Assembly: GCA_003555395.1 (NCBI GenBank)
Contig: PWHU01000077.1
Location: 1-51,012, forward strand
Length of the DNA stretch: 51,012 nucleotides
Direction: 5' to 3'
DNA from: Thermoplasmata archaeon
Lineage (GTDB): Archaea > Thermoplasmatota > Thermoplasmata > Halarchaeoplasmatales > Halarchaeoplasmataceae
In this document: positions 6,050-49,225 of the stretch, one piece after another
Layout of the letters: every line of letters starts with the position of its first letter
Numbering within the stretch: the stretch's first letter is position 1
Made by a program: the position numbers and the translations under genes
Notes under the pieces: generated by a model
What the model saw: the letters and a program-made list of their open reading frames with translations, nothing else
What the model was told of the DNA's origin: nothing
Database searches by the model: none

Positions 6050-6107
6050 CGCTTATTCATATATAACTCCATTATAAGTTTTTACCCTTTGAGTGAAGTA
6101 AGAAAAG

Positions 6108-6203
6108 TGCTCCCGGGGGGATTCGAACCCCCGTAATCGGCTATCCCTGGCCGTTGTCGGCCTCGAAAGGCCGAGATGATTGGCCGGACTACACCACAGG
6201 AGC
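6108..6203 (-). tRNA. tRNA-Glu (anticodon UUC) with a 21-nt intron; CCA not encoded
   Basis: Reverse complement: GCTCCTGTGGTGTAGTCCGGCCAATCATCTCGGCCTTTCG[AGGCCGACAACGGCCAGGGAT]AGCCGATTACGGGGGTTCGAATCCCCCCGGGAGCA. The acceptor stem is GCTCCTG/CGGGAGC and the T-arm is GGGGG-TTCGAAT-CCCCC. After removing the bracketed segment the anticodon stem is TCGGC/GCCGA with loop CTTTCGA. The mature length is 75 nt. Confidence 0.85.
6143..6163 (-). other. tRNA-Glu intron at the canonical 37/38 position (boundary ambiguous by 1 nt)
   Basis: The 21-nt insert contains the hairpin GGCCG-ACAA-CGGCC and can also pair with the 5' anticodon stem (TCGGCC/GGCCGA). This is compatible with a bulge-helix-bulge splice substrate. 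Confidence 0.7.
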
Positions 6204-16508: not shown

Positions 16509-18338
16509 TCAGATAACTATGCTGACTCTTTTTCCTCTGTTAGTGTCCTCTAAAAGACGTCTTCCAACTCTTGTGCCCTTTCTCACCTTTATAGTGCCGT
16601 CCTCACCGACTGTCAAGGTCGAAAGGTATTCGTCATCTGAGTAAATATCAACGCTTTTTTTAGCGTATTCTACTCCCACATCTATGACTATCTTTTCTTT
16701 CTCTATGAATATATCTACGTCCATCATCTCGGATTCCGTTCTTTCACGAATTTTACCACCGCCTAATGGTTGCACGTCGATGCTCATCCCCAGCCCCTCT
16801 TCTATCCTGGAGATGTTCCTGCCGTTCTTACCAAGGAGCGAAGCTATCTCGCTCTCGGGTACATAGACCGTGATCCTGTCTGATGAATCGACTTCTACTT
16901 CGACACGCCCTCTAACATGTCTGCTCAATTCCCTCTCTATTTCTCTCTCCGCCATGTTCCATACGGGTTTTTCTAAACTGCCTTCGGTTTCCTCTACAGG
17001 CATCACCACCACCTGCTCGCCGTAGGAGTAAACTTCGAACTCGACTATCCCTGTCTCGAAATCTTTCACCTCGATAACCGGTCTAGCTAGATCTTCTTCC
17101 ATCATGCCCGCCGGCACCTTGACGGTATAGCTTACATCGTAAACCTTGTTTATTTGACCGTCTTCAACATAGATCACCGTATCGACCACCTGCGGGACCA
17201 TACCTAGTTCTACTCTACCTATCAGTCTTTGGAGGGCATCTATAGCTCGACTCGCGTGTGTCACCCCGATCATGCCGACGCCGGCTAATCTCATGTCTGC
17301 GAAGACCTTAAAATCCGGTGTCTTTCTCACCTCGTCGTAGATGGTGTAATCCGGTCTTACCAGGAGTAAAATGTCACCGGTATCCTCCATCTTCCCTGCT
17401 AAGCTGGTATACTGGGTGATCTCGTCTCCTACCTGTAAGTCTCTAGGGTCTTCCATGGTCTTCACCGTATAATCCAAGTCCTTTAGATAGACGGCTATCG
17501 CTTGAGCCAACGTACTTTTTCCGGCACCGGGAGAACCGGATAAAAGGACACCCCGCTGCCTTTCAGCCAACCGTTCCTTCAACTCATCGGACAATCTATA
17601 ATCGTCCAATTCTACCTTAGCTACGGGTTTCACCGCCGTGATCTCGAAACCGTCGGAAAAAGGAGGTCTAGCTATCACTATACGGATATCCTCGAGCTGG
17701 ACAACCGTAGCACCGCCTTTATCGACTTCTATGAAACCTTCAGAAGACCTTTTAGCGCTTTCTATTATGTCATGAGCTATTTCGTTCAGTTCTTTTTCAT
17801 CCAAGACGCGTTCCTCTATGATACGTATACTAACGTTTCCAGGAGTACCCACCTTCGCCTTAGGCTTGTCTCCTTTGCGTAGATGTACCGACATGACGTT
17901 CTCGTCGAAGTAGTCTCGTATGCTCTTCCCTTTTTTTTCTTCTCTACTTTCTGGTTCGAGATAGTCCACATCTAAACCTTTAGCCCTGCCCACTTCCGAT
18001 TGAACGATATCGCTGGTGAGCAGAGTCGCATCTTCTTCGAGAGCCATGGAACGTATCATCGAATCTATCTCGCCGCTTGAACTAGCTTCCATCTCCTCGA
18101 CAGTAGGTCTTTCGCCGGCGAAAGAAAGCTTTATCTTTCCCTCCTCGTGGTACTCCCTCAATTTTTGTATCTCCTCGATACCGCTCAACCCTGTTTCTTG
18201 GCCCCTATTGGCCTGGCCTTCCAACTCGAGTAGAACTGCTTCAGGGATGATTATATGCGCTTCCTCGTAAAGTCCCTCTTCTATCCTGTCAGTGACTCGG
18301 CCGTCGATTATAACGCTAGTATCGGGTACTATCTTCAT
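16509..18338 (-). CDS. PIN-domain / PilT-like ATPase / KH-domain protein (archaeal PINA-type ATPase, COG1855)
   Basis: N-terminal PIN domain ([14 protein letters not shown]...), Walker [17 protein letters not shown], and a C-terminal KH-like [20 protein letters not shown]. Confidence 0.85.
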
Positions 18339-20693: not shown

Positions 20694-22226
20694 TCAGCAG
20701 ACCTTCTCCACTTTTGGATGCTCCTCCAAGATCATGCCTTCCACCTTTAAGGGTTTAAGGTGATTGGCGGCTTTCACCGCCTTCTTCAACTCGCTCTTAC
20801 TTTCCGAATAGATCGTGTAAAGTACTTCGTCCCTTTCTACCTTATCTCCCTTTTTCTTATCCAAGAACAGGCCGGCCCCTTTACAGTGAGGCCCTCCTGC
20901 CGCCCTCACGATATTTATTATCTGATGGTTGTTTATACTGTCAACATAGCCCTCTTCCACTGCCCGGATGTCTTCAGAATATTCTCCTATCTCGACATCA
21001 TCGGACGTAACCTCAGGATCTCCACCCTGCTTATCTATTATCTGTTTCATCTTATCCAGGGCTTCGCCGCTGTTCAGCAATCGTTTAGCCTCTTCTTTAC
21101 CGTCACTTATACCGCCCTGTTCAAGTACCATGCCCGCAAGAGTGGTAGATTTTTCTATCAAACTTGAAGGCACATCCTTTCCTTCAAGGGCCATCAACGC
21201 TTCTTTAGCCTCTATGGCCGGTCCGACAGCTCTACCAACGGGCTGGCCTCCGTAACTCAAGGCACATCTGGTTTCTATGCCTATATCCTCGCCGAGAGAG
21301 ACAAAATCTCTTGCGTATTTTCTTCCTTTCTCTATGGTCTCCACTTTGGTGTTCTCTCCCACAGGGATGTCCATCACCAGATATTCGGCTCCGGCGGCTT
21401 TCTTTTTTGATAGAACGGAAGCTAGTACCTGAGCGTAAGGATCTATCCTCAAGGGATATTCGGCTCTTATGATCATGTCGTCACTGGGCGCTAGATTTAC
21501 CGCACCACCCCATGCTATAGTACCTCCGACATCTTCCGCTATCTCCTTTATCTCGTTCACGCTCAGACACACGTTGGCCAATGTCTCGAATATATCTGCG
21601 GTTCCTCCGGCGCTGGAGATAGCTCTTGAGCTGGTTTTTGGGATCATGAGGCCTGCAGCTGCCACTATAGGGACTATGAGCAGCGTTATCTTGTTTCCGG
21701 GAACACCGCCTATACTGTGATGATCGAAGACAGGATGTTCATCAAATTCGATCCTGTCGCCTGTATCGATCATGGCATGGATTAGATCTTTTATCTCCCT
21801 GTTGCTCATACCGTTGGCGTAGACTCCGGATACGTAGGCTGAAAGCTCTATATCCGAGAGACGTCCTTCTACTATATCTTGGATTATCTCGTTTATTCCA
21901 TGGGTGGACAATTCTTCACCTTCCAATTTTTCTTTTATATGCTCGATAGATTCGGGTCTTCTCGCCTGGACTACTTTCAATTCGTCCCCTTGGGTAACCT
22001 TGAGGTCTTGGATAACTTTTTCTACTAGTCCTATCTCGCCCTTATCTATCAAACTCTCTGATATCTCAACCACAGCCGTGGTGTTTCTCCCCTCTTTGTT
22101 CACGCTCACTCTACTCTGGCTCCGCAGTCCCATCCTTTCTGCATCATCTCTGTGTAGTATCACTAAATGATCTCCTGATTCCAGGTCTATCTTTTTGCCT
22201 TTCAATTTCATCGGTTTCACATCCAT
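20694..22226 (-). CDS. deoA: AMP phosphorylase (thymidine phosphorylase family, archaeal type)
   Basis: About 505 aa, with the extra N-terminal domain typical of AMPpase, plus HSIGGVPGNK, SSRAISSAGGTAD and PVGRAVGPAIEAKEAL. ATG 22211 (MKLKGKKIDL) is an equally plausible start. Confidence 0.85.
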   Translation of the reverse strand: MDVKPMKLKGKKIDLESGDHLVILHRDDAERMGLRSQSRVSVNKEGRNTTAVVEISESLIDKGEIGLVEKVIQDLKVTQGDELKVVQARRPESIEHIKEKLEGEELSTHGINEIIQDIVEGRLSDIELSAYVSGVYANGMSNREIKDLIHAMIDTGDRIEFDEHPVFDHHSIGGVPGNKITLLIVPIVAAAGLMIPKTSSRAISSAGGTADIFETLANVCLSVNEIKEIAEDVGGTIAWGGAVNLAPSDDMIIRAEYPLRIDPYAQVLASVLSKKKAAGAEYLVMDIPVGENTKVETIEKGRKYARDFVSLGEDIGIETRCALSYGGQPVGRAVGPAIEAKEALMALEGKDVPSSLIEKSTTLAGMVLEQGGISDGKEEAKRLLNSGEALDKMKQIIDKQGGDPEVTSDDVEIGEYSEDIRAVEEGYVDSINNHQIINIVRAAGGPHCKGAGLFLDKKKGDKVERDEVLYTIYSESKSELKKAVKAANHLKPLKVEGMILEEHPKVEKVC

Positions 22227-23446
22227 TTATCAAGGGCCTTTTTCAATTCTAGATGCTCTTTTGCATATTCTTTCAGTTCTATACCTTTGACGGCCGCGTC
22301 TACGGCCTGTGAAAGAGCTTTCGCTCCTGCTCTCACACCGTCAGGATGCCCCGAGACACCGCCGCCGGCTTGGATCTGTACGTCATTTCCGCTGTTTTCC
22401 ATCAGTTCGGGTATCAATCCTGGATGAAGCCCTCCGCTCGCCACGGGCATCATCCTTTTCAAACCGTGCATCTCGCCTAAAAGGGCTTCTTTGGACATCA
22501 ATTCTTCAGATATGTCGGCGTGCATCTTTCCAGTTCCGTAAGTACCGGTATGCAGCGCATCTCCTCCAGCCATCCTTACCAGTTTTGCTATCACGGGCAT
22601 GGATATACCGTGATCTGGATTTTTCGTGATAGCGCCGTGCATTGCCCTATGAACGTGGATAGGAACTTTGATCGATGGGTCTTCAGCAAGAGCTTGCAGG
22701 CCGGAAAAACCGACTGTCAAAACGTCCACCATCAACTGCCTAGCGCCGTTCTCCAAAGCTAGGTCGCCGGCTTCTAAAATTTTATGAACGCTGGTGCTTA
22801 TGTTGTGAGCGTGTATCATCTTGTGGCCTTCTTCCTCCAACAGATCCAACTTTTCACTCACATAAGACACTCTTTCTTCTAAAGGACAAAAATCCTGATC
22901 TACCAAAGTTTCGTCGTCCTTTGAGTTGGTAAGTCCGCCTTTTCCCGCCTCGTATACGTAATCGGAAAACTCTTCAGGAGGAAGACCTATCTTTGGCTTC
23001 ACTATAGTACCTACTAGAGGTTTTTCGGGTCTCCCCAATATCCCACGAAGACCTTCTATTCCCTGCTGAGGTCCAGGATACTTATTTACAATTTTAGACG
23101 GTAACTCTATATCTACCAAACGAACTCCGTCTAAAGAGTCAAGACCGAAAAGATTTCCTGCGATTATACTCAGTATTTGAGGGATCTCTCCGATCTCACC
23201 TGAAAAATCTATAACAGGGTAACCAATCCTAGTACGATCACCTTCCGCCTCCACTACTTTGGCGCCGTACCGCTCGAATATTTCATCCGACAAAGTTGTG
23301 GGATGTGTCCAAGTTCCGGTGGACTCCTCTTCAGCTATCCTTTTTCCCGCGGTCTCTATGTCAAGGTCACTTTTCACTGTATATTGGCATATCAGGTATC
23401 CTTCTGGGTCTAATTCTTCGTCCAATGCTAGATAGTCTATACTCAT
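22217..23446 (-). CDS. rbcL: Ribulose-1,5-bisphosphate carboxylase, form III large subunit
   Basis: All catalytic positions are recognisable: VKPKIGL (K175/K177), SKDDE (K201/D203/E204), HVHRAMH (H294/R295/H298), HTGTYGTGK (H327/K334), SGG and GGGVSGHP. At 409 aa it is at the short end for form III. Confidence 0.9.
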   Translation of the reverse strand: MSIDYLALDEELDPEGYLICQYTVKSDLDIETAGKRIAEEESTGTWTHPTTLSDEIFERYGAKVVEAEGDRTRIGYPVIDFSGEIGEIPQILSIIAGNLFGLDSLDGVRLVDIELPSKIVNKYPGPQQGIEGLRGILGRPEKPLVGTIVKPKIGLPPEEFSDYVYEAGKGGLTNSKDDETLVDQDFCPLEERVSYVSEKLDLLEEEGHKMIHAHNISTSVHKILEAGDLALENGARQLMVDVLTVGFSGLQALAEDPSIKVPIHVHRAMHGAITKNPDHGISMPVIAKLVRMAGGDALHTGTYGTGKMHADISEELMSKEALLGEMHGLKRMMPVASGGLHPGLIPELMENSGNDVQIQAGGGVSGHPDGVRAGAKALSQAVDAAVKGIELKEYAKEHLELKKALDKWM

Positions 23447-24366
23447 CTTATCATCTCCTCTATAATGCGATAAGCACCTTCGGGTGAGATCACGCCTTTC
23501 TCGGTGATTATCGAGTCTATATACTCTGATGGGGTGGCGTCGAAAACTGGATTGCTTATGTTAACACCCGGAAATTTTTTAGGGTCTACGATCTCCGATG
23601 GGTCCCGTTCCTCTATCGGGACAAGTTCGCCGAAGGTGCTTTTTCTCGAAAACTTGTAGGTTTCGGCGCAGACCGTTAGAGGGACTCTTGCCTCGTCGGC
23701 ACAAAGGGCTACCTGAGAAGTACCTATCTTGTTTATGACAGCGCCGTTAGATGCGATGGTGTCGGCACCTACGTACACCTTGTCGACCTTCTTGATCTTC
23801 GCCCTCACCGCCGAATCCACTATCAGCGTAACCGGTATACCTTCCTTTGAAAGCTCTTCGACCGTTATGTAACCCTGTTTTTTAGGCCGCGATTCAGTGG
23901 CTATAACGCTTATGTTCTTTCCATTGTTCCACGCGTACTTTATCGCCGCCAAGGCCATCGAGCTGTTGCAGTGCGTCAGGACCATGTCGTCATCGCTGAT
24001 CCTTCTACCGCCGTACTCGGCTATCTTGCTTTTTGCTCTGATAGAGTTATCGATGAAATCCGAGTAGTTATCACTTATCATTTCTTTCAATTGTTCTATA
24101 TCATCAGCTTTTCTCACTCCGTGCATCACGTATCTTAAACCGTTCTCTAAGGATACGGCGGTGGGCCTTGTAGAAAGCAATCTTACCTTGCATGTTTCAA
24201 GCTCTTCCAAAAGATCCGTCATGTCTTCATTTTCAAAATCTTCCCCGATTTTTTTCAGTGCGTAGGCCCCGGCTCTTGCTATCTCAGCGGCACCTCTTAT
24301 CTCCATAGATTCGATCTTCCTGGCGATCTCTTCTACCTCTAATCCCTCTATATCGTCTAAACCCAT
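23443..24366 (-). CDS. Ribose-1,5-bisphosphate isomerase (eIF-2B alpha/beta/delta-like)
   Basis: MEIRGAAEIARA, RPTAVSL, VLTHCNS, ATESRPKKQG, VGADTIASNGAVINKIGT and NPVFDATP. ATG 24366 fits the family N-terminus; the track's TTG at 24432 adds 22 atypical residues. Overlaps the rbcL start by 4 nt. Confidence 0.85.
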   Translation of the reverse strand: MGLDDIEGLEVEEIARKIESMEIRGAAEIARAGAYALKKIGEDFENEDMTDLLEELETCKVRLLSTRPTAVSLENGLRYVMHGVRKADDIEQLKEMISDNYSDFIDNSIRAKSKIAEYGGRRISDDDMVLTHCNSSMALAAIKYAWNNGKNISVIATESRPKKQGYITVEELSKEGIPVTLIVDSAVRAKIKKVDKVYVGADTIASNGAVINKIGTSQVALCADEARVPLTVCAETYKFSRKSTFGELVPIEERDPSEIVDPKKFPGVNISNPVFDATPSEYIDSIITEKGVISPEGAYRIIEEMIR

Positions 24367-24439
24367 GGGATGGAATATGCTTTTATGGGTAAAAAATCTT
24401 TGTGTGTTAAGGCTGAAAAAAAAGTCGATCAAACGATTT

Positions 24440-25081
24440 TTACAAATCCAGCCTTTCTAGTAAAAGTGAAAGGTCCTTCTTCTCTATTATCATGTCAGCC
24501 GCCTTTCGTACTTCGTTATCGCTGGGATTGAACGCTATGCCTACGCCGGCTTTTTTCAACATGGGAGCATCGATGTGACTGTTACCAACGGCGACACATC
24601 TTTTCTTTTTGACTCCTATATCTTTCACCAGTCTTTCAAAGATATCCCCCTTCTCTTTTAACTTCACTTCTACTATACCCTCACCCGTCAATTCACCTCC
24701 TTTCTCCTCGACATCGTTAGCGAGTATCCTATCGAAGTATCTACTTCCGATCATCTCGGCCAAAGGTTTCAAACCTCCGCTTATCACCGCAGTTGTGTAA
24801 TTTTCTCCAAGATAGGGTACACATTCATCGAACCCGTTCATCACAGGAGCTTCGCTCAATATGTTTACTACTTCCTCCTTTGAAATATCAGGGTTCATAG
24901 ATCTCCATAGACCAATATCCCTTCTTATGAATTCTAGATCGTCTATCTCATCGTTCATGTAGGCTCTCAAAGAATCTTCATTGTCCACGCCGAACCTGTC
25001 GTGGATCCACTTCCATGAACTGTGTGTGTCGACTAGAACGCCGTCCATGTCGAAAACGATCATCTCTTTTTTTGAAGTCAT
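24440..25081 (-). CDS. HAD-superfamily phosphatase (phosphoserine phosphatase-like)
   Basis: Motif I is VFDMDGVLVD, motif II is VISGG, and motifs III/IV are KGD...AVGNSHIDAPMLKKAGVGIAFNP. The start overlaps the upstream gene's stop (ATGA). Confidence 0.8.
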   Translation of the reverse strand: MTSKKEMIVFDMDGVLVDTHSSWKWIHDRFGVDNEDSLRAYMNDEIDDLEFIRRDIGLWRSMNPDISKEEVVNILSEAPVMNGFDECVPYLGENYTTAVISGGLKPLAEMIGSRYFDRILANDVEEKGGELTGEGIVEVKLKEKGDIFERLVKDIGVKKKRCVAVGNSHIDAPMLKKAGVGIAFNPSDNEVRKAADMIIEKKDLSLLLERLDL

Positions 25082-27297
25082 AAGTCAGCCCTTATATCCT
25101 CCATATTCTTTTTGTACTCTTTAAAATATTCTATGCTTTCCTTTAGGTCCCCGCTCTTTCGAGCGTTGTTGGTCTCCTTTAAAAGTTTTACCGGCCTCGA
25201 TATATCCGCCCCCTGGATCTTAGCTTTTTTAAGCTCGTCTCTAGCCTCTTTTATATCATCTTTAAGAGCGTTCGCCAGCTGCCGGAAAGCTTTATTTTCT
25301 ATCTTTTCGATCAGTCTTTGTAATCCACCTATTTCTCCCTTCTCGCATTTACTTCTCGCTTTTTCAATGAGACCCCGTGCTTCAGGAAAATCGAGCTCGA
25401 GTTTTTCAGCCATACTGATGGTGTCTTCGATCCTAGAAAGTTCTTCTTTGAAGGGCTCTAAATCCTCTTCATCTCGCTCACTTTCTTTTTCTCCCCCTCT
25501 CTTCTTTTTTTCGATCAACTCCCTTATCTTTTTGTAATCTCCATTATCTCTATATTTTTCGATCCTTTCCTTCAGCTCTTGCATACCGTCGATCGAACTC
25601 TCTTCCATCTGGTTTAACTCGTCCTCGATCTTTTTATCAAGCTTTCTTTGGAAGAACTCTTCACAATCTCTCAAAGATTGTATCGCATCCTCATAATCGT
25701 TCTGTTTAGTTTTTTCCACAGCCTCTTTGATGAGTTCTTTTCCCCCTTCGATATCGATACCGAAATTCTTTGATCTCTTCAGAAGTTCTTTAGTCCTAGG
25801 TATTTTCTGCTGTATCTCTTTGAAGAGGTTTTTTCCACCTTTCTTCTCCACCGTTTCTTCTTTTTTCTTTTTTTCGACTTTTTCTTCCTTTTCCCCCAAT
25901 TTCTTTTTGAGATCATCTATGGTACCTTCGACTTTGTCTTCCCCGCCGGAGATATCTCCCCTTTTGAACCTTTCTTTTGCCTCCTCTAGGTCGTCCGAAT
26001 ACTCTTCATATTCCCTCTCTTTCTCCTTGAGCCGTTCTATATGATCTTCCGCTTCTACGATCTTCTTAGATATATCATGTACGGTTTCAGCTGTCCTATT
26101 AGCGTTCATGATGCTGTGAAAACTTTCGATCAGATCGCCGACTTCCATCTCTATAGATGAATTGTCTACGTACTCTTCTATATCTCCTGTGTCTACATCT
26201 ACATTGAGATCGTCTATCTCAGAAAGCTTTTCTTTTACGGATTTTTCTTTCTTTTCTATATATCTCTTCAATTCTTTTCCTTTCTTCATCCCCATGTCTT
26301 CGGCCACTTCTTTTATGTCTTGTTCGACTTCATCCGCCTTTTTTGATGCCACCCTGTATTCCCCAATCTCACATCCTCTCAATATGTCTTCTATCCATTC
26401 TTCGAGATTTGAAGTATCGCTTTTTTGAGAGATCCACTCGATGTAATTTCTACATCTTTCTACTCTTTCACGTATGTCTAATGCAAAGCCTACCCTATCC
26501 TCTGCCCTTTCGACCAGACCGTTAGCTTTTTCTTCGTCTTCATCCTCTAATGCATTTTTTACTTTATTCAAATCTGATTTGATCTCATCCAATACTATAT
26601 TGGAACGCCTCAACCTTCCTATTTTCTCTTCAAGTGAATGGACTCTTTCCTGAAGGTCCGTTTCGCTACTTTCCATCTGCTGCTCGAGGATAGAATCTAA
26701 CTCTTCGAAATCACCGTGTATATCATCCAGTTCCTCTGCCACGCTGCTGATATCTTTTTCAAGTTCTTCTTTCTTTTCATCCACCACTTCTTCTTCGATC
26801 TCTTCATCTTCTTCTTCCTCAAATATCACGCCGCAGCTTGGACATTCGGATGCATCTTCTGAAACTTCACTTTCACATATGGGACATTCAAAGGTGATGA
26901 TCCTCTCTATGTTCTCTTCCGTATCTTCCTCAGTATCTTCGGGTTCCTTTTTCTCCTCTTCTAAATCATCATCAGACAGGCCAAGGTCTTTGAGGTCTTC
27001 TATAAGTTCGTTTTGTATCTCATCATCGTCCTCTTCTTCTTCCTCCTCCTGTATCTCTTCCTGGCCTAGTTCGTCCTCGATCGAATCCAAATCACTAGGT
27101 CCATCTATTTGATCGATACCTTCATCGTCTAAAACCATATCCATAACTTTTTCGATCGATTCTTGAGATATGTCATCCTCTAGATCTATATCTTGATCAA
27201 ACAGACTAAGATCGGCTCCGCAGATGGGGCACTTTTCTTGGTCGTGCGGTATATCAGAATCGCAAACGGGACAAATGGTCTCAGAATCTTCTTCCAA
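25078..27297 (-). CDS. Hyperacidic coiled-coil protein with two N-terminal zinc ribbons
   Basis: 739 aa with a TTG start. The zinc ribbons are CPVC-x11-CPIC and CPIC-x11-CPSC. The rest is E/D/K-rich with heptad-like periodicity and matches no family I recognise. Confidence 0.7.
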   Translation of the reverse strand: MEEDSETICPVCDSDIPHDQEKCPICGADLSLFDQDIDLEDDISQESIEKVMDMVLDDEGIDQIDGPSDLDSIEDELGQEEIQEEEEEEDDDEIQNELIEDLKDLGLSDDDLEEEKKEPEDTEEDTEENIERIITFECPICESEVSEDASECPSCGVIFEEEEDEEIEEEVVDEKKEELEKDISSVAEELDDIHGDFEELDSILEQQMESSETDLQERVHSLEEKIGRLRRSNIVLDEIKSDLNKVKNALEDEDEEKANGLVERAEDRVGFALDIRERVERCRNYIEWISQKSDTSNLEEWIEDILRGCEIGEYRVASKKADEVEQDIKEVAEDMGMKKGKELKRYIEKKEKSVKEKLSEIDDLNVDVDTGDIEEYVDNSSIEMEVGDLIESFHSIMNANRTAETVHDISKKIVEAEDHIERLKEKEREYEEYSDDLEEAKERFKRGDISGGEDKVEGTIDDLKKKLGEKEEKVEKKKKEETVEKKGGKNLFKEIQQKIPRTKELLKRSKNFGIDIEGGKELIKEAVEKTKQNDYEDAIQSLRDCEEFFQRKLDKKIEDELNQMEESSIDGMQELKERIEKYRDNGDYKKIRELIEKKKRGGEKESERDEEDLEPFKEELSRIEDTISMAEKLELDFPEARGLIEKARSKCEKGEIGGLQRLIEKIENKAFRQLANALKDDIKEARDELKKAKIQGADISRPVKLLKETNNARKSGDLKESIEYFKEYKKNMEDIRADL

Positions 27298-28698: not shown

Positions 28699-28807
28699 TC
28701 ATAAAATAAGGCTTGTTTCCTTGATTCCTCAACAGGTTTACATCTTCCTGACAGTAGAGGACTGACGTCCCCGCATATTTCGGGAAGAAAAAACTTCCCT
28801 TCAACAT

Positions 28808-28966
28808 GCCGAGGTAGCTAAGTCTGGGCTAAGGCGCCGGCCTTGAGAGCCGCCCAAAGGAAAAAAGTCTGGAAAGGCCTTTTCCTTGCATCGGGAAGAG
28901 ATTCCCGGTGTGTCAAGCAAGCCGGTGGCGCGCTGCGCCTCAGGAGTTCGAATCTCCTCCTCGGCG
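28808..28966 (+). tRNA. tRNA-Ser (anticodon UGA) with a 72-nt intron
   Basis: The acceptor stem is GCCGAGG/CCTCGGC with discriminator G. The T-arm is AGGAG-TTCGAAT-CTCCT and the long variable arm is GGCGC-GCT-GCGCC. The anticodon stem CCGGC/GCCGG forms only after removing 28848..28919, giving loop CTTGAGA. The mature length is 87 nt. A T-run (CTTTTT) follows. Confidence 0.8.
28848..28919 (+). other. tRNA-Ser intron at the canonical 37/38 position
   Basis: 72 nt: AGCCGCCCAAAGGAAAAAAGTCTGGAAAGGCCTTTTCCTTGCATCGGGAAGAGATTCCCGGTGTGTCAAGCA. It has two internal hairpins: CAAAGGAAAA...TTTTCCTTG, and CGGGAA-GAGA-TTCCCG. Confidence 0.7.
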
Positions 28967-29196
28967 CTTTTTACATTTTCTGAGTGATAGCGAAGAAGAT
29001 TTAGAAGCAAGGAAAATCTGTGATTTTGTGGCGTCTTCAAATCTTTTGAATGAAATGAAGAAGTTTGAAGGCGAGAAGAAGCTATGCTTCTTCTATTTCG
29101 AACGTAGTGAGAAAAATTGATAGCTGCTATGATCTTCTGATCACAAAACTTAACAGAACGATATCATGAGATATATATTGTTATGACGTTTGCTTG

Positions 29197-29562
29197 TCAC
29201 CCTAACAAAGCAAGGATCCCTGCATTTATACTGAGAACGCCGATTATCATTTGAACGGGAACGAGTCCCTTGATCAGCTTATCTAGATTTTGTTTGATCT
29301 TGGGCATCGGCGCCCACATCAAGAGACCGAGTGCCGCCGTGACACCGGCTATGATAAGGATTATACTAATCCATATACCTAGGCCCCAGACACCAATACC
29401 TACGCCTATTATCCCTATAGCTCCTTGAAATATACCTATCCGCTCGACCTCTTCATCCAAACTTTGTCCGCCGATCGGGATCAATTCGTACAAGACTAAA
29501 AATGCGGTCAAGAGGGCGAACCCGACTATTATAGCAAAGATACCGGTTATCATGATTAACAC
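29197..29562 (-). CDS. Small glycine-rich membrane protein (about 4 TM helices)
   Basis: The 121-aa ORF is hydrophobic and G/I-rich throughout. It starts at GTG 29562 or ATG 29553. No known motif. Confidence 0.55.
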   Translation of the reverse strand: MLIMITGIFAIIVGFALLTAFLVLYELIPIGGQSLDEEVERIGIFQGAIGIIGVGIGVWGLGIWISIILIIAGVTAALGLLMWAPMPKIKQNLDKLIKGLVPVQMIIGVLSINAGILALLG

Positions 29563-29650: not shown

Positions 29651-32644
29651 TCACAGATCTCTATCTAGGTTTGCATCACAGGCCCAGCATTTTTCGAATT
29701 CAGGTTCGTTTTCGCTGCCGCAGAAAGGACATTTGATCACACCGTCGTCTGCAGGTGGGGGTATTTCTTCTCTTGAATATTCTCTGTTCCCTGTATCGCG
29801 TCTTCTATCTCTTCTTATATCATTTCCTTTTTGTGGACTTTTTCCTTCGCTTTTACGTCGCCGCCGCTCCGCTACTGCTGCGGGAGAAAGCAGTTTTCCG
29901 TTCTCATCTCGCATCGGTTGATCGTTTCTATCTTGAGCAACTGTTCTTTCCGGGGGAGCTCGTTGATCATTTTGCTGTTGATCCTGTCTCATGGGAGGAG
30001 CTCTTTCCGGGGGAGCTCGTTGATCATTTTGCTGTTGATCCTGTCTCATGGGAGGAGTTCTTTCCGGAGGAGCTCGCTGATCATTTTGCTGTTGATCCTG
30101 TCTCATAGGAGGAGTTCTTTCCGGAGGAGTTCGCTGATCATTTTGCTGTTGATCCTGTCTCATGGGAGGAGCTCTTTCCGGAGGAGTTCGCTGATCATTT
30201 TGCTGTTGATCCTGTCTCATGGGAGGAGCTCTTTCTGGAGGATTTTGCCGTCCGTTTTGCTGCTGATCCTGTCTCATAGACACGTCGTCATACTCTTCAG
30301 TACTTTCAAAAGGATCTGGTGCATCAGGAATTTCTTCTTTATTAGATGGAGCCGCCTCTATATTGGCATAATCCTCGCCGCAGTTGGGACAATAACCTTC
30401 GAATCTCACACAAGCTTCGTGATAAATATTACCACATGAACAGGCGACTAGGTTTTCGGAAGCTATATGTGTACCACACATATCACAGACTTCTTTCCAT
30501 TCTCCCGAATCGCCAGGCTCAGAACCTTCGGAAGTCATAGGCAAGAAACCTCCGTTTTCCATCTCACCTTCAGGAGGCCTTCCGTCTGCAGATTCCCAAT
30601 CGAATCGTTCGTACCTTTCTTCCTGTATTTTTTCTAACTTCTGTTCTTTTCCTTGTTTGATCTTAGATAATCTTGAATCTTTCATAGGGATCAATTCTTC
30701 TTCTTTTTCCCTTTTCTTTTTCCAATAAACGAAAAGTCCTAACAAGACTAGAATCACTGGAGTCGGAGTGAAATACCATGCGTTTATCCCGACGCTGGCC
30801 TCTTCAGTCTCGGTCTCCATCACGTTACCTGCGTTATCGACGGCCTCGACATAATATTCGAAGGAAGAAGAGAATCCGACATGGTCACCGGGTATGGTAG
30901 CTACGTACTCACCACCTTCTTGGCTCATGCGTACGTCTCTCCAACCGTCTCCTGTATCGTAGTAAAGGCGAACGTCGTCAATCCCGCTGTATTGGTCTCT
31001 TAGATCCGCCCTGACGATCATATCATTATTCCAAACCGTATCAGAGTAAGAAATTTCCTGGAGAGTGGGTGTAGCTGTATCGACGTAAAAGGTAACATTT
31101 TTGACCATCTCATTACCGACCAGATCGATGCTTCTCACTTCTAAATATACTTCCCCTCTCTCTTCGCATACGATAGTGTCTTCATAGGATGCGTTTATAT
31201 CGTTTCCAAAAAGTGTCTCCCACTCCTCGTTTTGATCATATCTATAGTCTATCCTTGTCAACCCTGATAGATCGTCTTCACTCGAGATGGTTACCTCCGG
31301 CGAAAAAGAGTACCATTGATGGGTTGTTTCTGGAAGAGTTATATCCAATTCAGGGGCCTCATTATCCACTTTGATCTCTAAAGATTCTATCTGGCTTTCC
31401 AGCCCCTGGTTGTTCTCCGCATAATATTCGATATCGTGAATTCCCGAGTCGAATTCTAATGTTACGGCTTCGGTCTCATGCTCGTTCCACGTTTCGGCTC
31501 CACCTATACGTGTATAAATAGAGTCCACACCAGAGATATCGTCCTCGGCGCTTATGTTCAATTCAACAATATCTGTGTACCAGCCCTGATCGTGCATCGT
31601 TCCCGAAACGATCTCATGAGTCACTTGGGGCGGTTCCTCATCCACTTCATAACTTATGGATATCTCTTCCAATTCAGGCGTGTCTATACCGTCGGTCGCT
31701 TCGAACGTGACCCTATACTGTATATATCTGTATCTGGGACTTGGGACATCCTCCTCATTTTCCGCTTCCTCCCAGTCGCTCCAAGATACTTGATCTGGAG
31801 AAGTCCGGGTCTCTACCGTCAGGTCGGTCGTACCTGTAGGTTCCTCGTATTCCCACGAGATAGTATCCCAGTTCCAGAAGTACTCCCCGGGATCATACAC
31901 GGAAGATTCGAGTACTCCGTTCTCTTCGTGGGTTATTATTTCAGCTTCCATGGTATGTCTTTTCGTTTGACCGACTTCGTTCATCGTTTCAGGTGTGCTG
32001 CCTATGTTCGTTCCTGTTCTGTAATAGTTGTGATCTCCGCCTGTTTTTGCGGCTGAAAGTTCTCCAAATGCATATATGCCGATCCAATCACCCTGGTTTA
32101 TCGGGAGGTCCACATCCCATGTCCTTCTTCCGCCTGGTTGAGGATTATCTATAGCGGTTTCACCCTGAGGGGTGTCTACCCAATAGTCATCACCTCCAGA
32201 CGGTTTAAGAACCATCAGATCGAAGGAACTTACGTTCTCGCCGGTAGCCATGGTGAATTCGTCTATAAATCCGCCTCTTGATGCCTGATATTGAGGGTCG
32301 GCCGATTTGGTGGTGTAACCGCCTTCCCAAGCGGAATCAGGGGTCTCGACCCTCCCTATCTTGTAGCTGTATGTGTCCAGCTTCATAGTTCCTGTATCGT
32401 CTATGATCAAAGTATCGTCTACTTCGCCCTCTTCGAAATCATCACGGGTGGATTGTCTCCATTCTCGTACGTGATCTTGTTGGATGCTCTCGCTAAGCGT
32501 AGAATCGGTATCTATACCCGCGTCATATTCGTACGAACCAAAAGCGATGCCTGAAAGCACGGGTGAAGAACCGATGATCAACCCGAAGATTATCCATATC
32601 GAAACTATCCTCTCGATGCTGATTGAGTCCGTTGTTTCTGGCAT
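29651..32644 (-). CDS. Large single-pass membrane protein: Ig-like ectodomain, cytoplasmic zinc-finger and tandem-repeat tail
   Basis: 997 aa with an N-terminal signal/anchor helix. The ectodomain has three modules with SG[VLI]D...[DN]x(A/V/Q)G[NL] signatures (DDISGVDSIYTRIGG, DDLSGLTRIDYRYD, DQYSGIDDVRLYYDTGDGW...AVDNAGN). A TM helix (PVILVLLGLFVYW, then KKK) follows. The cytoplasmic tail carries a C4HC3 finger, six 19-aa repeats, an R/K-rich stretch and a C-terminal CPFC-x10-CWAC ribbon. Confidence 0.8.
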   Translation of the reverse strand: MPETTDSISIERIVSIWIIFGLIIGSSPVLSGIAFGSYEYDAGIDTDSTLSESIQQDHVREWRQSTRDDFEEGEVDDTLIIDDTGTMKLDTYSYKIGRVETPDSAWEGGYTTKSADPQYQASRGGFIDEFTMATGENVSSFDLMVLKPSGGDDYWVDTPQGETAIDNPQPGGRRTWDVDLPINQGDWIGIYAFGELSAAKTGGDHNYYRTGTNIGSTPETMNEVGQTKRHTMEAEIITHEENGVLESSVYDPGEYFWNWDTISWEYEEPTGTTDLTVETRTSPDQVSWSDWEEAENEEDVPSPRYRYIQYRVTFEATDGIDTPELEEISISYEVDEEPPQVTHEIVSGTMHDQGWYTDIVELNISAEDDISGVDSIYTRIGGAETWNEHETEAVTLEFDSGIHDIEYYAENNQGLESQIESLEIKVDNEAPELDITLPETTHQWYSFSPEVTISSEDDLSGLTRIDYRYDQNEEWETLFGNDINASYEDTIVCEERGEVYLEVRSIDLVGNEMVKNVTFYVDTATPTLQEISYSDTVWNNDMIVRADLRDQYSGIDDVRLYYDTGDGWRDVRMSQEGGEYVATIPGDHVGFSSSFEYYVEAVDNAGNVMETETEEASVGINAWYFTPTPVILVLLGLFVYWKKKREKEEELIPMKDSRLSKIKQGKEQKLEKIQEERYERFDWESADGRPPEGEMENGGFLPMTSEGSEPGDSGEWKEVCDMCGTHIASENLVACSCGNIYHEACVRFEGYCPNCGEDYANIEAAPSNKEEIPDAPDPFESTEEYDDVSMRQDQQQNGRQNPPERAPPMRQDQQQNDQRTPPERAPPMRQDQQQNDQRTPPERTPPMRQDQQQNDQRAPPERTPPMRQDQQQNDQRAPPERAPPMRQDQQQNDQRAPPERTVAQDRNDQPMRDENGKLLSPAAVAERRRRKSEGKSPQKGNDIRRDRRRDTGNREYSREEIPPPADDGVIKCPFCGSENEPEFEKCWACDANLDRDL
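29936..30277. repeat. Six tandem 57-nt repeats, in frame within the 997-aa gene
   Basis: The complement of the Met codon (CAT) recurs at 29990, 30047, 30104, 30161, 30218 and 30275, which is exactly 57 nt apart. The units encode MRQDQQQNDQR(A/T)PPER(A/T)PP and differ at only a few positions. Confidence 0.95.
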
Positions 32645-46558: not shown

Positions 46559-49225
46559 ATGAAAATAGAAAAAAGTGTGACTTTGTGTTTGGGTTTGTTG
46601 TTAGTGACGAGTGTTTTCTGCTTTGCTTTTTGTTCTGAAGTTGGAACGGACGAAGTCGAGGCCGTATCCGATGAAAGGATCGGGGACGAAATTGAAGAGG
46701 ATCCAAAGCAGATAGAAGACATCCATGACCTGCAGGAGATGGATCAGGGATTGGACGCGCATTACGTGATCATAGACGATATAGACGCAAGCGAAACCTA
46801 TGATTGGAACTCGGGCGGATTCGAACCCGTAGGAGATGAAGACGAGCCGTTCACCGGAACATTGGATGGTCAAGGGTTCAAGATCACCGAACTGTTCGTC
46901 GACCGTCCAGATTCGAATTACGTCGGCCTGTTCGGAAATTTGGGAGATGCGGCGCAGGTGAGCGGCGTGACCCTCGAGGATGTAGATATCACTGGAAAGT
47001 ACTACGTTGGTGCCCTAGCCGGATTCAACTCCGGGTCGGTATCCGATTCAAGTTCGTCAGGAAGAGTAGAAGGAAACGACAACGTAGGCGGTCTCGTAGG
47101 GAGGAACTACGGCGGACTGTTGAACGCGCACTCGAAGGCGGATGTGACGGGTTTCGGCAGAGTTGGCGGTCTCGTAGGTAGAAACGACGGCGAAACAACG
47201 AACTCCTATGCAAAAGGGGATGTTGACGGGAGCCTGGAGATCGGCGGCCTATCGGGAACAAACCATCACAGGATATCCTACTCCTATGCAACGGGTGGTA
47301 TAACCGGGGATTTTGCAGTCGGTGGATTAGTTGGACTCAGCCACAGCAGTGTTACCACATCTTACGCGATGGGAAGCGTCGTCGGATCGGAAGAACGTGT
47401 AGGTGGTCTGGTAGGATACAATTACTACGGCACGGTATCCGACTCCTACGCTGAAGGAAGTGTTGATGGAAACTACCGAGTAGGCGGTCTCGTAGGGCTC
47501 ACCCGTGGCGAGGTGAAAAACTCGTATTCGATAGCGAGCGTTACCGAAACCGGTGATATGATAGGTGGTCTGGTAGGAGAGGATACGGAAACGGTAGTAT
47601 CAAACGGTTTCTGGGACGTCGAGGCTTCTGGCATGGATGCCAGCGACGGCGGTACGGGTAAAAGCACGGCGGAGATGAAAGACGTCGCTACTTATACGGA
47701 CACATCAACTGCAGGATTAAGCGAGCCCTGGGACTTTGTTGGAGACCCCAACGACGACGAAGGCGATGAAAACATCTGGGATATCGACGAAGATGAGGAA
47801 CTCAATCATGGATATCCTTTCTTGGCTTGGAAAGAAGATCCGGTCGAATACAATCTGACCGTCGATATAGAAGGTGAAGGTTTGGTAAGAGTCGAAGGGC
47901 AAGAGATAGCGGATGGTTGGACCGAAGAGTTTGAGGAAGGAGAAGAACTGACCGTTGAAGCGATAGAAGATAAGGAGGGCTGGTATTTTGCTGAGTGGAT
48001 CGGGGACGTACCCGAGAGCGAGAAAGAGAAATCAGAGATAACAGTAGAGATGAACGATGACAAGGAGATAACGGCTTCTTTCCAAGAGTATACAGAACAT
48101 TACGATCTCACGATAAATATAGATGGAGAAGGATCAGTGGAGATCGACGGAGAAGAAGTCGAAGACGGTCGGACAAAAACATACGAAGAAGGAACTGAGG
48201 TAGAGCTGCAAGCGAAGCCTGGTGAAGACCGGTATTTTGTTAATTGGACAGGCGACCATGAAAGCGATGAGGAGGAGATAACAGTGACCATGGACGAAGA
48301 TAAGGAGATAACCGCGCATTTCGAAGAAGAGGCAGCGGTATATCACGAACTAACTGTAAACGTAGAGGGCCAAGGCCAAGTGGAAAAAGAGCCTGAGCGG
48401 GAAAAATACCAGGAAGGTACGGAAGTGATCTTGAAAGCTGTCGCAGACGTAGATTGGCGTTTCGATAGATGGTCGGGAGATGTTCCGGGAGGAGAGGAAG
48501 AAGATAGTGAGACCGATATGATAATGGACCAAGATAAAAATATCACGGCTAACTTCTTGCGCGAGCCTTACTTCGAAGTGGATATAGTCGATCACTGCCA
48601 AGAGGTTAAAGAAGGGGAATTCGTCGTGATCGATTACATCGTGGTCAACACGGGAGATATCGAAGATACGCAGGAGGTAGGGCTTACGGTTTCAGGTGAG
48701 TTGAAAAAGATAGAGGATGTTAGTCTAACAGGAGGTTCGGAGTTCTCAGGAGAATTCATATGGCCCACTGAGGAAGAAGATGCCGGTGTATATGAATTGA
48801 GTGTGGCCAGCGCGGACGACGAAGAAGCGGTGAACGTCACCGTATTAAGAGATGCATTTTTTGAAGTGGAGATCGTTGATCACCACGACGAAGCGCTTGA
48901 ACAGGTAACCGTAGGATACGAGGTGACCAACACCGGTGGTGTGGAGGCAGAGCAAACCATAGAGATCAAAGTCAACGACGAAGTTGAAGAAAGAGTAGAG
49001 ATCGTTCTCGGTCCTGGAGAAAAATTTGAAGACGACTTCGTCCTGCGGTCCGAAGATCCGGGAGAATACTTACTTCAGATATCGAGCGAAGACGAAGATG
49101 ACGAGGTCATCGTGAATATAGAGGAAGGAGAAGAAGGCATACCTGGTTTTTTGGCTATACTTTTCGCGCTAGTTGTGATAGCTGCATCAGCCGTTATAAT
49201 CATTTACAAAAAGAAAAAACAGTGA
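46559..49225 (+). CDS. Secreted surface protein: GLUG repeats, InlB B-repeat-like domains, CARDB-like domains, PGF-CTERM anchor
   Basis: A signal peptide is followed by at least 7 GLUG motifs (VGGLVGRNYG, VGGLVGRNDG, IGGLSGTNHH, VGGLVGLSHS, VGGLVGYNYYG, VGGLVGLTRG, IGGLVGED). Next come four Y(N/D/H)LT(V/I)...W(I/T/S)GD repeats and two CARDB-like FEV(D/E)IVDH modules. The C-terminus is GIPGFLAILFALVVIAASAVIIIYKKKKQ. Confidence 0.85.
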   Translation: MKIEKSVTLCLGLLLVTSVFCFAFCSEVGTDEVEAVSDERIGDEIEEDPKQIEDIHDLQEMDQGLDAHYVIIDDIDASETYDWNSGGFEPVGDEDEPFTGTLDGQGFKITELFVDRPDSNYVGLFGNLGDAAQVSGVTLEDVDITGKYYVGALAGFNSGSVSDSSSSGRVEGNDNVGGLVGRNYGGLLNAHSKADVTGFGRVGGLVGRNDGETTNSYAKGDVDGSLEIGGLSGTNHHRISYSYATGGITGDFAVGGLVGLSHSSVTTSYAMGSVVGSEERVGGLVGYNYYGTVSDSYAEGSVDGNYRVGGLVGLTRGEVKNSYSIASVTETGDMIGGLVGEDTETVVSNGFWDVEASGMDASDGGTGKSTAEMKDVATYTDTSTAGLSEPWDFVGDPNDDEGDENIWDIDEDEELNHGYPFLAWKEDPVEYNLTVDIEGEGLVRVEGQEIADGWTEEFEEGEELTVEAIEDKEGWYFAEWIGDVPESEKEKSEITVEMNDDKEITASFQEYTEHYDLTINIDGEGSVEIDGEEVEDGRTKTYEEGTEVELQAKPGEDRYFVNWTGDHESDEEEITVTMDEDKEITAHFEEEAAVYHELTVNVEGQGQVEKEPEREKYQEGTEVILKAVADVDWRFDRWSGDVPGGEEEDSETDMIMDQDKNITANFLREPYFEVDIVDHCQEVKEGEFVVIDYIVVNTGDIEDTQEVGLTVSGELKKIEDVSLTGGSEFSGEFIWPTEEEDAGVYELSVASADDEEAVNVTVLRDAFFEVEIVDHHDEALEQVTVGYEVTNTGGVEAEQTIEIKVNDEVEERVEIVLGPGEKFEDDFVLRSEDPGEYLLQISSEDEDDEVIVNIEEGEEGIPGFLAILFALVVIAASAVIIIYKKKKQ

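Follow-up and report, generated by a model that had tools for sequence, protein, structure and literature searches.

We analysed a 51,012-nucleotide stretch of DNA from a Thermoplasmata archaeon (contig PWHU01000077.1, positions 1 to 51,012, of assembly GCA_003555395.1; hereafter the window), and in it the open reading frame (ORF) of 997 amino acids (aa) that lies at 29651..32644 on the minus strand. This ORF is a real gene, from a haloalkaliphilic (soda-lake) member of the Thermoplasmatota, and encodes a type I membrane protein. The 356-aa tail of the protein, which is likely cytoplasmic, carries a zinc finger that we confidently predict to be a cross-brace RING of the prokaryotic C4HC3 class (Prok-RING_1-like), and ends in a C4 zinc ribbon tethered by a disordered linker. 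Considering its conservation and its presence on an unrelated ectodomain, this tail appears to be a portable cassette. We tentatively propose, with a confidence that stays a little short of even, a surface binding protein that is docked by its tail to an intracellular partner. The features of the gene and of its immediate downstream neighbour are as follows.

29651..32644, minus strand: complete gene, 997 aa, ATG start (ORF list; homologues of 30-60% identity span the full length)
32537..32644, minus strand: signal peptide or anchor, aa 1-36, with a hydrophobic core at aa 12-36 (hydropathy scan)
31628..32536, minus strand: N-terminal ectodomain, aa 37-339, predicted tandem all-beta jelly-roll, lectin-like sandwiches (AlphaFold2, AF2, and Foldseek)
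30782..31627, minus strand: three Ig-like modules, aa 340-428, 429-522 and 523-621 (NCBIfam, Pfam)
30722..30781, minus strand: transmembrane helix, aa 622-641 (hydropathy scan; kept in homologues)
30605..30721, minus strand: basic juxtamembrane segment, aa 642-680 (invariant columns in the family alignment)
30365..30496, minus strand: predicted RING-type C4HC3 binuclear zinc finger, aa 717-760 (pattern, invariance, AF2, profiles)
30380..30487, minus strand: finger ligands, aa 720-755, C-x2-C-x11-C-x-C-x4-H-x2-C-x6-C-x2-C
29936..30277, minus strand: six 19-aa Q/P/R-rich tandem repeats, aa 790-903, in a disordered linker (Tandem Repeats Finder, translation)
29744..29935, minus strand: R/K-rich low-complexity stretch, aa 904-967 (composition)
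29654..29743, minus strand: C-terminal C4 zinc ribbon, aa 968-997 (Pfam DUF7577, generic ribbon models)
29678..29731, minus strand: ribbon ligands, aa 972-989, C-x2-C-x3-N-x6-C-x2-C
29197..29562, minus strand: small multi-transmembrane protein of 121 aa, possible operon partner (directly downstream, same strand)

The tail motifs are more than chance occurrences, since their ligands are invariant among homologues that share 30-60% identity and since 11 of the 12 cysteines of the protein fall within the finger and ribbon motifs. The gene was recovered base-for-base identical in several soda-lake and salt-lake metagenome assemblies dated 2012-2022, and its homologue family carries the annotation "hypothetical" only.

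The finger was found at nt 30380..30487, with the C4HC3 pattern and at the position given for it in an earlier note made from the letters of the window. All eight ligands are invariant among the family homologues; across 66 diverse fingers seven of them are invariant and the remaining one is kept at ≥90%, and the prevailing spacing in 107 finger copies is x2/x10-12/x1/x4/x2/x6/x2. The AF2 model of aa 710-768, computed with the 66-finger alignment, exhibits a beta-hairpin followed by a central helix, with a mean predicted local distance difference test score (pLDDT) of 84.8 and values of 90-94 in the core. Nearly all of the top 50 Foldseek matches in the PDB were RING or U-box E3 domains (TM-score 0.45-0.67; root mean square deviation of 2.0-3.4 Å for the better RING matches), TRAF6, TRIM21/69, Ring1B-Bmi1, LNX and RNF13 being among them. 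In a comparison of the 66-finger profile with the PDB, RING-H2 E3 domains were matched over the full length at E~1e-6. A single cross-brace domain is thus predicted, and two separate ribbons in its place, the other outcome considered in the earlier note, are ruled out by the AF2 model together with its RING matches.

The same note had left the finger between PHD and RING variants, the PHD idea being raised because the C4HC3 order, with ligands 4 and 5 separated by 4-5 residues, fits. PHD structures were absent from the top 50 fold matches, the 66-finger profile met PHD fingers (MLL3, Pygopus) at E≥1.8e-4 and over positions 3-36 only, and Pfam PHD gave no match on the 997-aa protein at E≤1. Fold and profile comparisons therefore favour RING, which stands, and the PHD identity was rejected. 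On the protein itself the Pfam RING models remain sub-threshold, with zf-RING_15 at E 0.007, zf-C3H2C3 at E 0.078 and Prok-RING_1 (PF14446) at E 0.14, the latter scoring 12.6 bits for a gathering cut-off of 29.1. The finger relatives retrieved with the family profile (E 1e-15 to 1e-7) reach 50.9, 40.1, 34.6 and 31.5 bits on PF14446, and finger relatives also exceed the Pfam zf-RING_2 cut-off. Membership of the 997-aa protein in Prok-RING_1 would therefore be transitive, through its relatives only, and, because it reaches just 12.6 bits, its finger appears to be a divergent subgroup with respect to Prok-RING_1. The relatives that pass the Pfam cut-offs, the fold matches of the AF2 model and the matches of the 66-finger profile agree, and support the RING identity.

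Prok-RING_1 genes are associated in their neighbourhoods with genes for ubiquitin-like proteins (Ubl), E1, E2 or JAB proteins, and the family, prokaryotic RING finger family 1, is said to have been defined by Burroughs, Iyer and Aravind in 2011. The protein described here resembles it in the C4HC3 order, the RING fold and the adjoining transmembrane helices, and differs from it in the lectin/Ig ectodomain, the family-specific juxtamembrane motif, the terminal ribbon and a neighbourhood devoid of ubiquitin-system genes: neither the 51-kb window nor the homologue loci L001-L010 yielded any gene for E1, E2, Ubl or JAB. A further archaeal C4HC3 RING with nearly the same spacing is srfp (CSUB_C1477) of Caldiarchaeum subterraneum, C-x2-C-x11-C-x2-C-x4-H-x2-C-x10-C-x2-C, a small protein whose gene adjoins an Rpn11-like gene and forms an operon-like cluster together with those for Ubl, E1-like and E2-like proteins (PMC3082918). 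In contrast, the protein of the window is a 997-aa membrane protein without such neighbours, and its loop between ligands 6 and 7 is shorter. According to a review, C4HC3 is the arrangement of prokaryotic RINGs (PMC11354881). The finger class is thus already described in prokaryotes and the domain types are known, which corrects the earlier note: relatives pass Prok-RING_1 (PF14446), and the layout recurs in dozens of other proteins. A six-frame hidden Markov model scan of the 51-kb window revealed no RING tail besides that of this gene.

To determine the distribution of the tail, a profile of the region from the transmembrane helix to the finger was searched exhaustively against 1.84 billion representatives. 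The whole tail core was retrieved in six representatives, and finger-only matches in about 70 proteins. In a scan of 185,579 species genomes the family was found in five species, all of them metagenome-assembled genomes of Thermoplasmatota/Thermoplasmata, whose isolate labels (GSL_GSL3510_12 and B1Sed10_20, for example) hint at salt or soda lakes. The transmembrane helix, the juxtamembrane motif, the finger, a low-complexity linker and the terminal ribbon are kept in every full-length homologue (30-60% identity), which answers in favour of the tail the question, raised beforehand, of whether homologues would retain it. The ORF of P0004 diverges inside the transmembrane helix and ends 80 nt before the contig end, which is a truncation or an assembly artefact. 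In P0011, from Ca. Natronoplasma, the same succession of transmembrane helix, juxtamembrane motif, finger, linker and ribbon follows an InlB B-repeat/CARDB ectodomain, unrelated to that of the window gene; the tail is therefore considered a separable module.

The layout of a signal peptide, an ectodomain, a transmembrane helix and one or several RINGs is found in dozens of proteins among the finger relatives. Their ectodomains are unrelated to each other (NosD/PKD by Pfam; DUF2341 or sialidase by source annotation), some of them bear extra ribbons or a C-terminal J-domain, and the fingers occur in tandem arrays of up to 6-7. The relatives with a named taxon are all Thermoplasmatota/Thermoplasmata, except that one copy is also binned as Aenigmatarchaeota. 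Cytoplasmic RING tails look like a common device on surface proteins among these relatives, and the recurrence of the layout in dozens of proteins points to a general cytoplasmic adaptor role.

Two RING-tailed membrane proteins, P0016 (467 aa) and P0073 (1449 aa), share a similar C-terminal region, in which Pfam recognises DnaJ in P0016; this hints that some cytoplasmic RING tails may recruit Hsp70. The window itself encodes, at 46559..49225 on the plus strand, an 888-aa type I surface protein with GLUG motifs, InlB B-repeats, a C-terminal transmembrane helix and a short YKKKKQ tail. In P0011 the RING cassette is borne by an ectodomain of this type, which would illustrate the shuffling of ectodomains and tails.

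The tail begins, after the membrane, with a juxtamembrane motif, [LIM][LIM]P[MV]K[DE]S[KR]x[SD][KR]I...KLE, which among the 112 proteins collected is confined to this family and the P0011 group. An amphipathic helix was considered for this segment and rejected, the hydrophobic moment being low (≤0.32); the segment thus resembles a linear motif or helix of charged residues rather than a helix lying at the membrane surface.

The six 19-aa Q/P repeats described in the earlier note are present, as units of the MRQDQQQN... type at aa 790-903, and Tandem Repeats Finder reported a period of 57 with 5.8 copies and 94% matches at 29945..30277. All four of the short-read assemblies that cover the gene break inside the 57-bp array (window 29975..30205), so that the copy number of six, which rests on the window's own assembly, is established less securely than the remainder of the gene. 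The unitig depth in the array is ~1-4x that of the flanks. The linkers of the homologues are unrelated, acidic and Pro-rich, and 136-216 aa long; only the closest relative, P0002 (60% identity), contains a related repeat, of ~23 aa and differently phased. Since the linker sequence is not conserved and a related repeat occurs in P0002 only, the 19-aa repeats appear to be a recent lineage-specific expansion in a disordered spacer, and a conserved functional element, as which they had also been considered, was discarded: their conservation does not extend beyond that relative. The R/K-rich stretch was located at aa ~904-967, where it had been announced, with a pI of 9.8 and 17 K+R in 64 aa, and is likewise conserved in P0002 only.

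The terminal C-x2-C-x3-N-x6-C-x2-C motif was also found as described, at aa 972-989, and its four cysteines are all invariant among the homologues. Taken alone, the ribbon matches DUF7577 with 31.2 bits (E 1.7e-7, cut-off 28), and with 23.7 bits within the whole protein; Zn_ribbon_3, Zn_Ribbon_1 and DZR match the ribbons of seven out of seven family members. The RanBP2 pattern assigned to it beforehand holds for the cysteine and asparagine spacing. Zn_ribbon_RanBP (PF00641) scores 13.4 bits on the ribbon (E 0.048, cut-off 27), no Trp precedes the first cysteine, and P0009, P0010 and P0011 have Leu or Val where the pattern has Asn. In the PDB, the ribbon profile matches generic ribbons, among which RanBP2 and TRABID come in only at E 0.016-0.05. 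A RanBP2/NZF identity was therefore rejected on the sub-cut-off score, the missing Trp and the non-conserved Asn, and the terminal ribbon is best described as a plain generic archaeal C4 zinc ribbon (DUF7577). In the homologue of locus L010, the linker that separates the RING from the terminal ribbon is extremely Glu-rich and bears one more zinc ribbon (CYSCGSEINEEDESCEAC); how many ribbons the tether carries therefore varies. A literature search found no paper mentioning DUF7577, DUF7743, DUF7266 or DUF7286.

On the other side of the membrane, the region of aa 54-339 has no family match in Pfam. Its AF2 model (mean pLDDT 74) is all-beta and presents two sandwiches, for which Foldseek gave weak matches to tail proteins of haloarchaeal viruses with ConA-like lectin and LamG-like jelly-rolls (E 9e-9, TM-score 0.42), and to phage baseplate and tail proteins, the DDR1 discoidin domain and plant lectins (TM-score ≤0.38). 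These models make a fair but soft case for a lectin-type binding module that is carried by an Ig stalk. In the stalk, the OmpL47-type beta-barrel domain model of NCBIfam (NF047446) matches two stretches with 63.1 bits for a cut-off of 40, and Pfam DUF7743 matches aa 521-631 with 33.1 bits for a cut-off of 27. The three Ig-like modules proposed beforehand were thus recovered; the SGxD...AGN strings by which they had been recognised occur literally in some of the modules only (SGVD at 371, SGID at 553, VGN at 509 and AGN at 605), and SGGD at 149 belongs to another domain, outside the Ig-like modules. Longer homologues have three additional Ig modules inserted in this region. The likeness to the OmpL47-type multi-barrel surface domains of Leptospira and to bacterial Ig-like domains (Big_13, Big_3_2) is one of stalk domain type only: the equivalog model for OmpL47 proper scores 59.8 bits on the 997-aa protein, for a cut-off of 250.

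The orientation given in the first reading, with the ectodomain outside and the cysteine-rich tail in the cytoplasm, is likely. It is supported by the positive-inside rule, as KKKREK directly follows the transmembrane helix (aa ~622-641), by the confinement of the zinc-type cysteines to the tail, and by the hyper-acidic ectodomain, aa 37-621 having a net charge of about -100. Signal peptide cleavage is possible near SGIAFG/S, and the equivalent N-termini of the homologues have A-x-A-like ends. A class III (pilin-type) signal was considered and rejected; the [KRDE]-[GA] cleavage context that is found in the pilin-like neighbours of L002 is lacking at the N-terminus of the 997-aa protein, and a Sec-type signal is therefore more likely.

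Considering these features together, we infer a binding role for the ectodomain and a docking function for the tail. The signal peptide would export a hyper-acidic ectodomain made of two lectin-like sandwiches on a three-Ig stalk, most likely ligand- or glycan-binding (an adhesin or an S-layer-like protein), and the single transmembrane helix would anchor it. The RING and the tethered ribbon are predicted to act as zinc-stabilised protein-docking sites, which would tie the surface protein to a partner inside for its positioning, clustering or assembly. The variable disordered linker would serve as a flexible spacer: its sequence varies and the end modules are fixed, as is expected for a tether. 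Such docking would need no enzymatic activity.

In the longer relatives, the partner may be an adjacent type IV pilus-like machinery. The long-form homologues adjoin a conserved cluster of small proteins that have an N-terminal hydrophobic helix and a cleavage context like that of pilins, and a 1400-aa protein with weak DUF7286 similarity is also present in long-form loci. In L010, the genes of a T2SSE ATPase and of a T2SSF-like protein, the latter scoring 23.2 bits for a cut-off of 25.2, immediately precede that of the homologue. By its gene content L010 reads as a type IV pilus-like locus, and L001-L003 and L009 partly so. Large C-terminally anchored "S-layer-like" proteins and zinc-ribbon membrane proteins have been reported in archaeal type IV pilus loci by Makarova, Koonin and Albers in 2016, in a survey in which a RING tail is not described (PMC4858521). 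The long-form homologues are comparable to these proteins in that they adjoin pilin-like genes; the window gene and its nearest relative are situated outside any locus of this kind.

The region 3125..18310 of L010 contains the genes of the T2SSE ATPase, the T2SSF-like protein, a 192-aa protein, the RING-tailed homologue and the 1400-aa DUF7286-like protein, as well as those of two proteins of ~168 aa and two of ~162-176 aa with N-terminal hydrophobic helices. L001, L002, L003 and L009 also have, upstream and in divergent orientation, the gene of a 305-aa winged helix-turn-helix (wHTH) protein. The only T2SSE-type ATPase of the window, 11 kb away from the gene, is part of a 609-aa protein with PIN, T2SSE-like ATPase and KH domains (16509..18338, minus strand), and is not of the pilus-assembly kind.

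The window gene is flanked by a divergent CMD-family gene and, downstream, by the gene of the 121-aa multi-transmembrane protein, an arrangement that is common to the closest relative only (L004/L006), where the 121-aa protein is 70% identical. This small protein has no Pfam match and was not found beside the distant homologues.

Several points weigh against the docking proposal. Its intracellular partner is hypothetical, and the gene is known from DNA assemblies alone. In the window and in the locus of the closest relative (L004), tblastn revealed no pilus-assembly T2SSE, T2SSF or pilin-like genes; the CMD-family gene and the 121-aa membrane protein are the sole conserved neighbours of the two genes, and P0011 is located among housekeeping genes. 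The fold assignment of the ectodomain is weak (TM-score ≤0.42 for a model of pLDDT 74), and the topology is read from sequence features. Finally, characterised RINGs are mostly E3 ligases, and a pure adaptor role is less conventional.

A purely structural protein of the envelope, S-layer-like, in which the zinc modules would form an anchor plug or a self-associating lattice contact, is an unlikely but serious alternative. RINGs often homodimerise, dimers of TRAF6, TRIM and Ring1B/Bmi1 being among the top fold matches of the finger, and lattice contacts of this kind are conceivable. The 888-aa surface protein of the window uses a transmembrane helix and a short basic tail, so that anchoring needs little. 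In comparison, a tail of 356 aa with three separately conserved elements (juxtamembrane motif, RING and ribbon), which persists at 30-60% identity and has moved to another ectodomain, is more than an anchor requires.

We consider it rather unlikely that the protein is a membrane-anchored RING E3 ligase, in which the ectodomain would sense a ligand and the RING would recruit an E2-like enzyme for Ubl attachment. The best fold matches of the finger are active RING E3s, several of them in complex with an E2 (TRAF6-Ubc13, TRIM21-Ube2N, Ring1B-UbcH5c), and the PA-TM-RING protein RNF13 ranks 48th among them. The 66-finger profile matches the membrane E3s RNF13, ZNRF3, AMFR and synoviolin, and features of E2-binding RINGs are present, namely a hydrophobic residue between ligands 1 and 2 (CDMC/CDIC) and, in four of seven family members, CPxC at ligands 7-8. 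The RING of the Caldiarchaeum operon, srfp, is also C4HC3 with a very similar spacing (PMC3082918). However, ligands 6 and 7 are separated by a helix or loop that is shorter by four residues than its counterpart in RING-H2 E3s and lacks the usual Trp position, and the last cysteine is followed by Gly instead of the Arg/Lys "linchpin"; the shorter segment and the lack of a basic linchpin leave E2 engagement not readable from the sequence. The arrays of up to 6-7 fingers in the relatives are atypical for E3s, the window and all homologue loci are devoid of E1, E2, Ubl and JAB genes, and our literature search gave no report of E2-type systems in Thermoplasmatota, the phylum of Thermoplasmata.

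Eukaryotic PA-TM-RING and other single-pass transmembrane RING E3s, such as RNF13 and ZNRF3, whose RINGs are matched by the finger profile at E 5e-4 and 2e-3, respectively, have the same layout of a signal peptide, a binding ectodomain, a transmembrane helix and a cytoplasmic RING. The 997-aa protein differs from them in that it has no PA domain (Pfam, NCBIfam), in its C4HC3 instead of RING-H2 (C3H2C3) ligands, and in that no E2 or ubiquitin system is evident; the resemblance lies in the layout and does not make the protein a member of that family by itself. It is decidedly improbable that the tail is catalytic and the protein one of many unrecognised archaeal single-pass transmembrane RING E3s, in Thermoplasmatota and outside Asgard/Aigarchaeota. 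If it were, extracellular binding would be coupled to the conjugation of a Ubl or other modifier or to a regulated turnover of surface proteins, and the protein would be a prokaryotic counterpart, possibly an evolutionary precursor, of the PA-TM-RING/ZNRF3-type receptor ligases.

A one-component transmembrane signalling receptor, whose R/K-rich stretch and ribbon would bind nucleic acid or a regulator and alter expression, is very improbable: basic stretches (pI 9.6-9.8) do flank the zinc modules, zinc ribbons often bind nucleic acid and a wHTH protein is divergently encoded beside long-form homologues, but conservation of the R/K-rich stretch ends with the closest relative, the strongly acidic linkers of the others would repel nucleic acid, the wHTH neighbour is not in the window, and the Pfam and NCBIfam scans recognised no signalling domain in the 997-aa protein.

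In summary, the motifs and coordinates listed in the earlier note and the cross-brace stand and the cytoplasmic tail is likely, while the PHD and RanBP2 identities and the conservation of the repeats do not.

Elsewhere in the window, a 739-aa soluble protein, hyper-acidic, coiled-coil-rich and without a transmembrane helix, is encoded at 25078..27297 on the minus strand, a few kb from the gene, and has two zinc ribbons at aa ~9-30 and ~137-160 (UPF0547, Zn_ribbon_3, DZR). A bacterial-type DnaA ATPase (E 2e-54) with a C-terminal DUF835, a fusion that is unusual for an archaeal genome, is encoded at 442..2109 on the plus strand. The cluster at 20694..24432 on the minus strand, with an AMP-phosphorylase-like glycosyltransferase, the large subunit of a type III RuBisCO and an IF-2B-family protein (ribose-1,5-bisphosphate isomerase-like), is the archaeal AMP salvage pathway arrangement. 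Fibrillarin and an archaeosine TGT are also encoded. This gene content (fibrillarin, the type III RuBisCO with AMP phosphorylase, the archaeosine TGT), two intron-bearing tRNAs and the taxon labels of the homologues all assign the window to the archaeal phylum Thermoplasmatota. Intron-containing tRNA genes are present at 28808..28966 (plus strand) and 6107..6203 (minus strand), with Rfam scores of 38.6 and 46.3 bits; ARAGORN reported the second one only (6107..6203), with the anticodon not named. The ORFs at 28801..29040 (minus strand) and 28908..29120 (plus strand) are probably spurious, as they overlap the tRNA gene at 28808..28966.

RING fingers are a hallmark of eukaryotic ubiquitin ligases, and to our knowledge their prokaryotic relatives are poorly characterised experimentally. 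In this soda-lake Thermoplasmatota lineage, a predicted RING and a tethered ribbon are placed, as a transferable cassette, on the inner end of large surface proteins. Identifying the partner of the cassette would show how these archaea link surface proteins to the cell interior, and would also reveal whether the RING fold has here an ancestral role that does not involve ubiquitin or belongs to a new archaeal E3 ligase branch.

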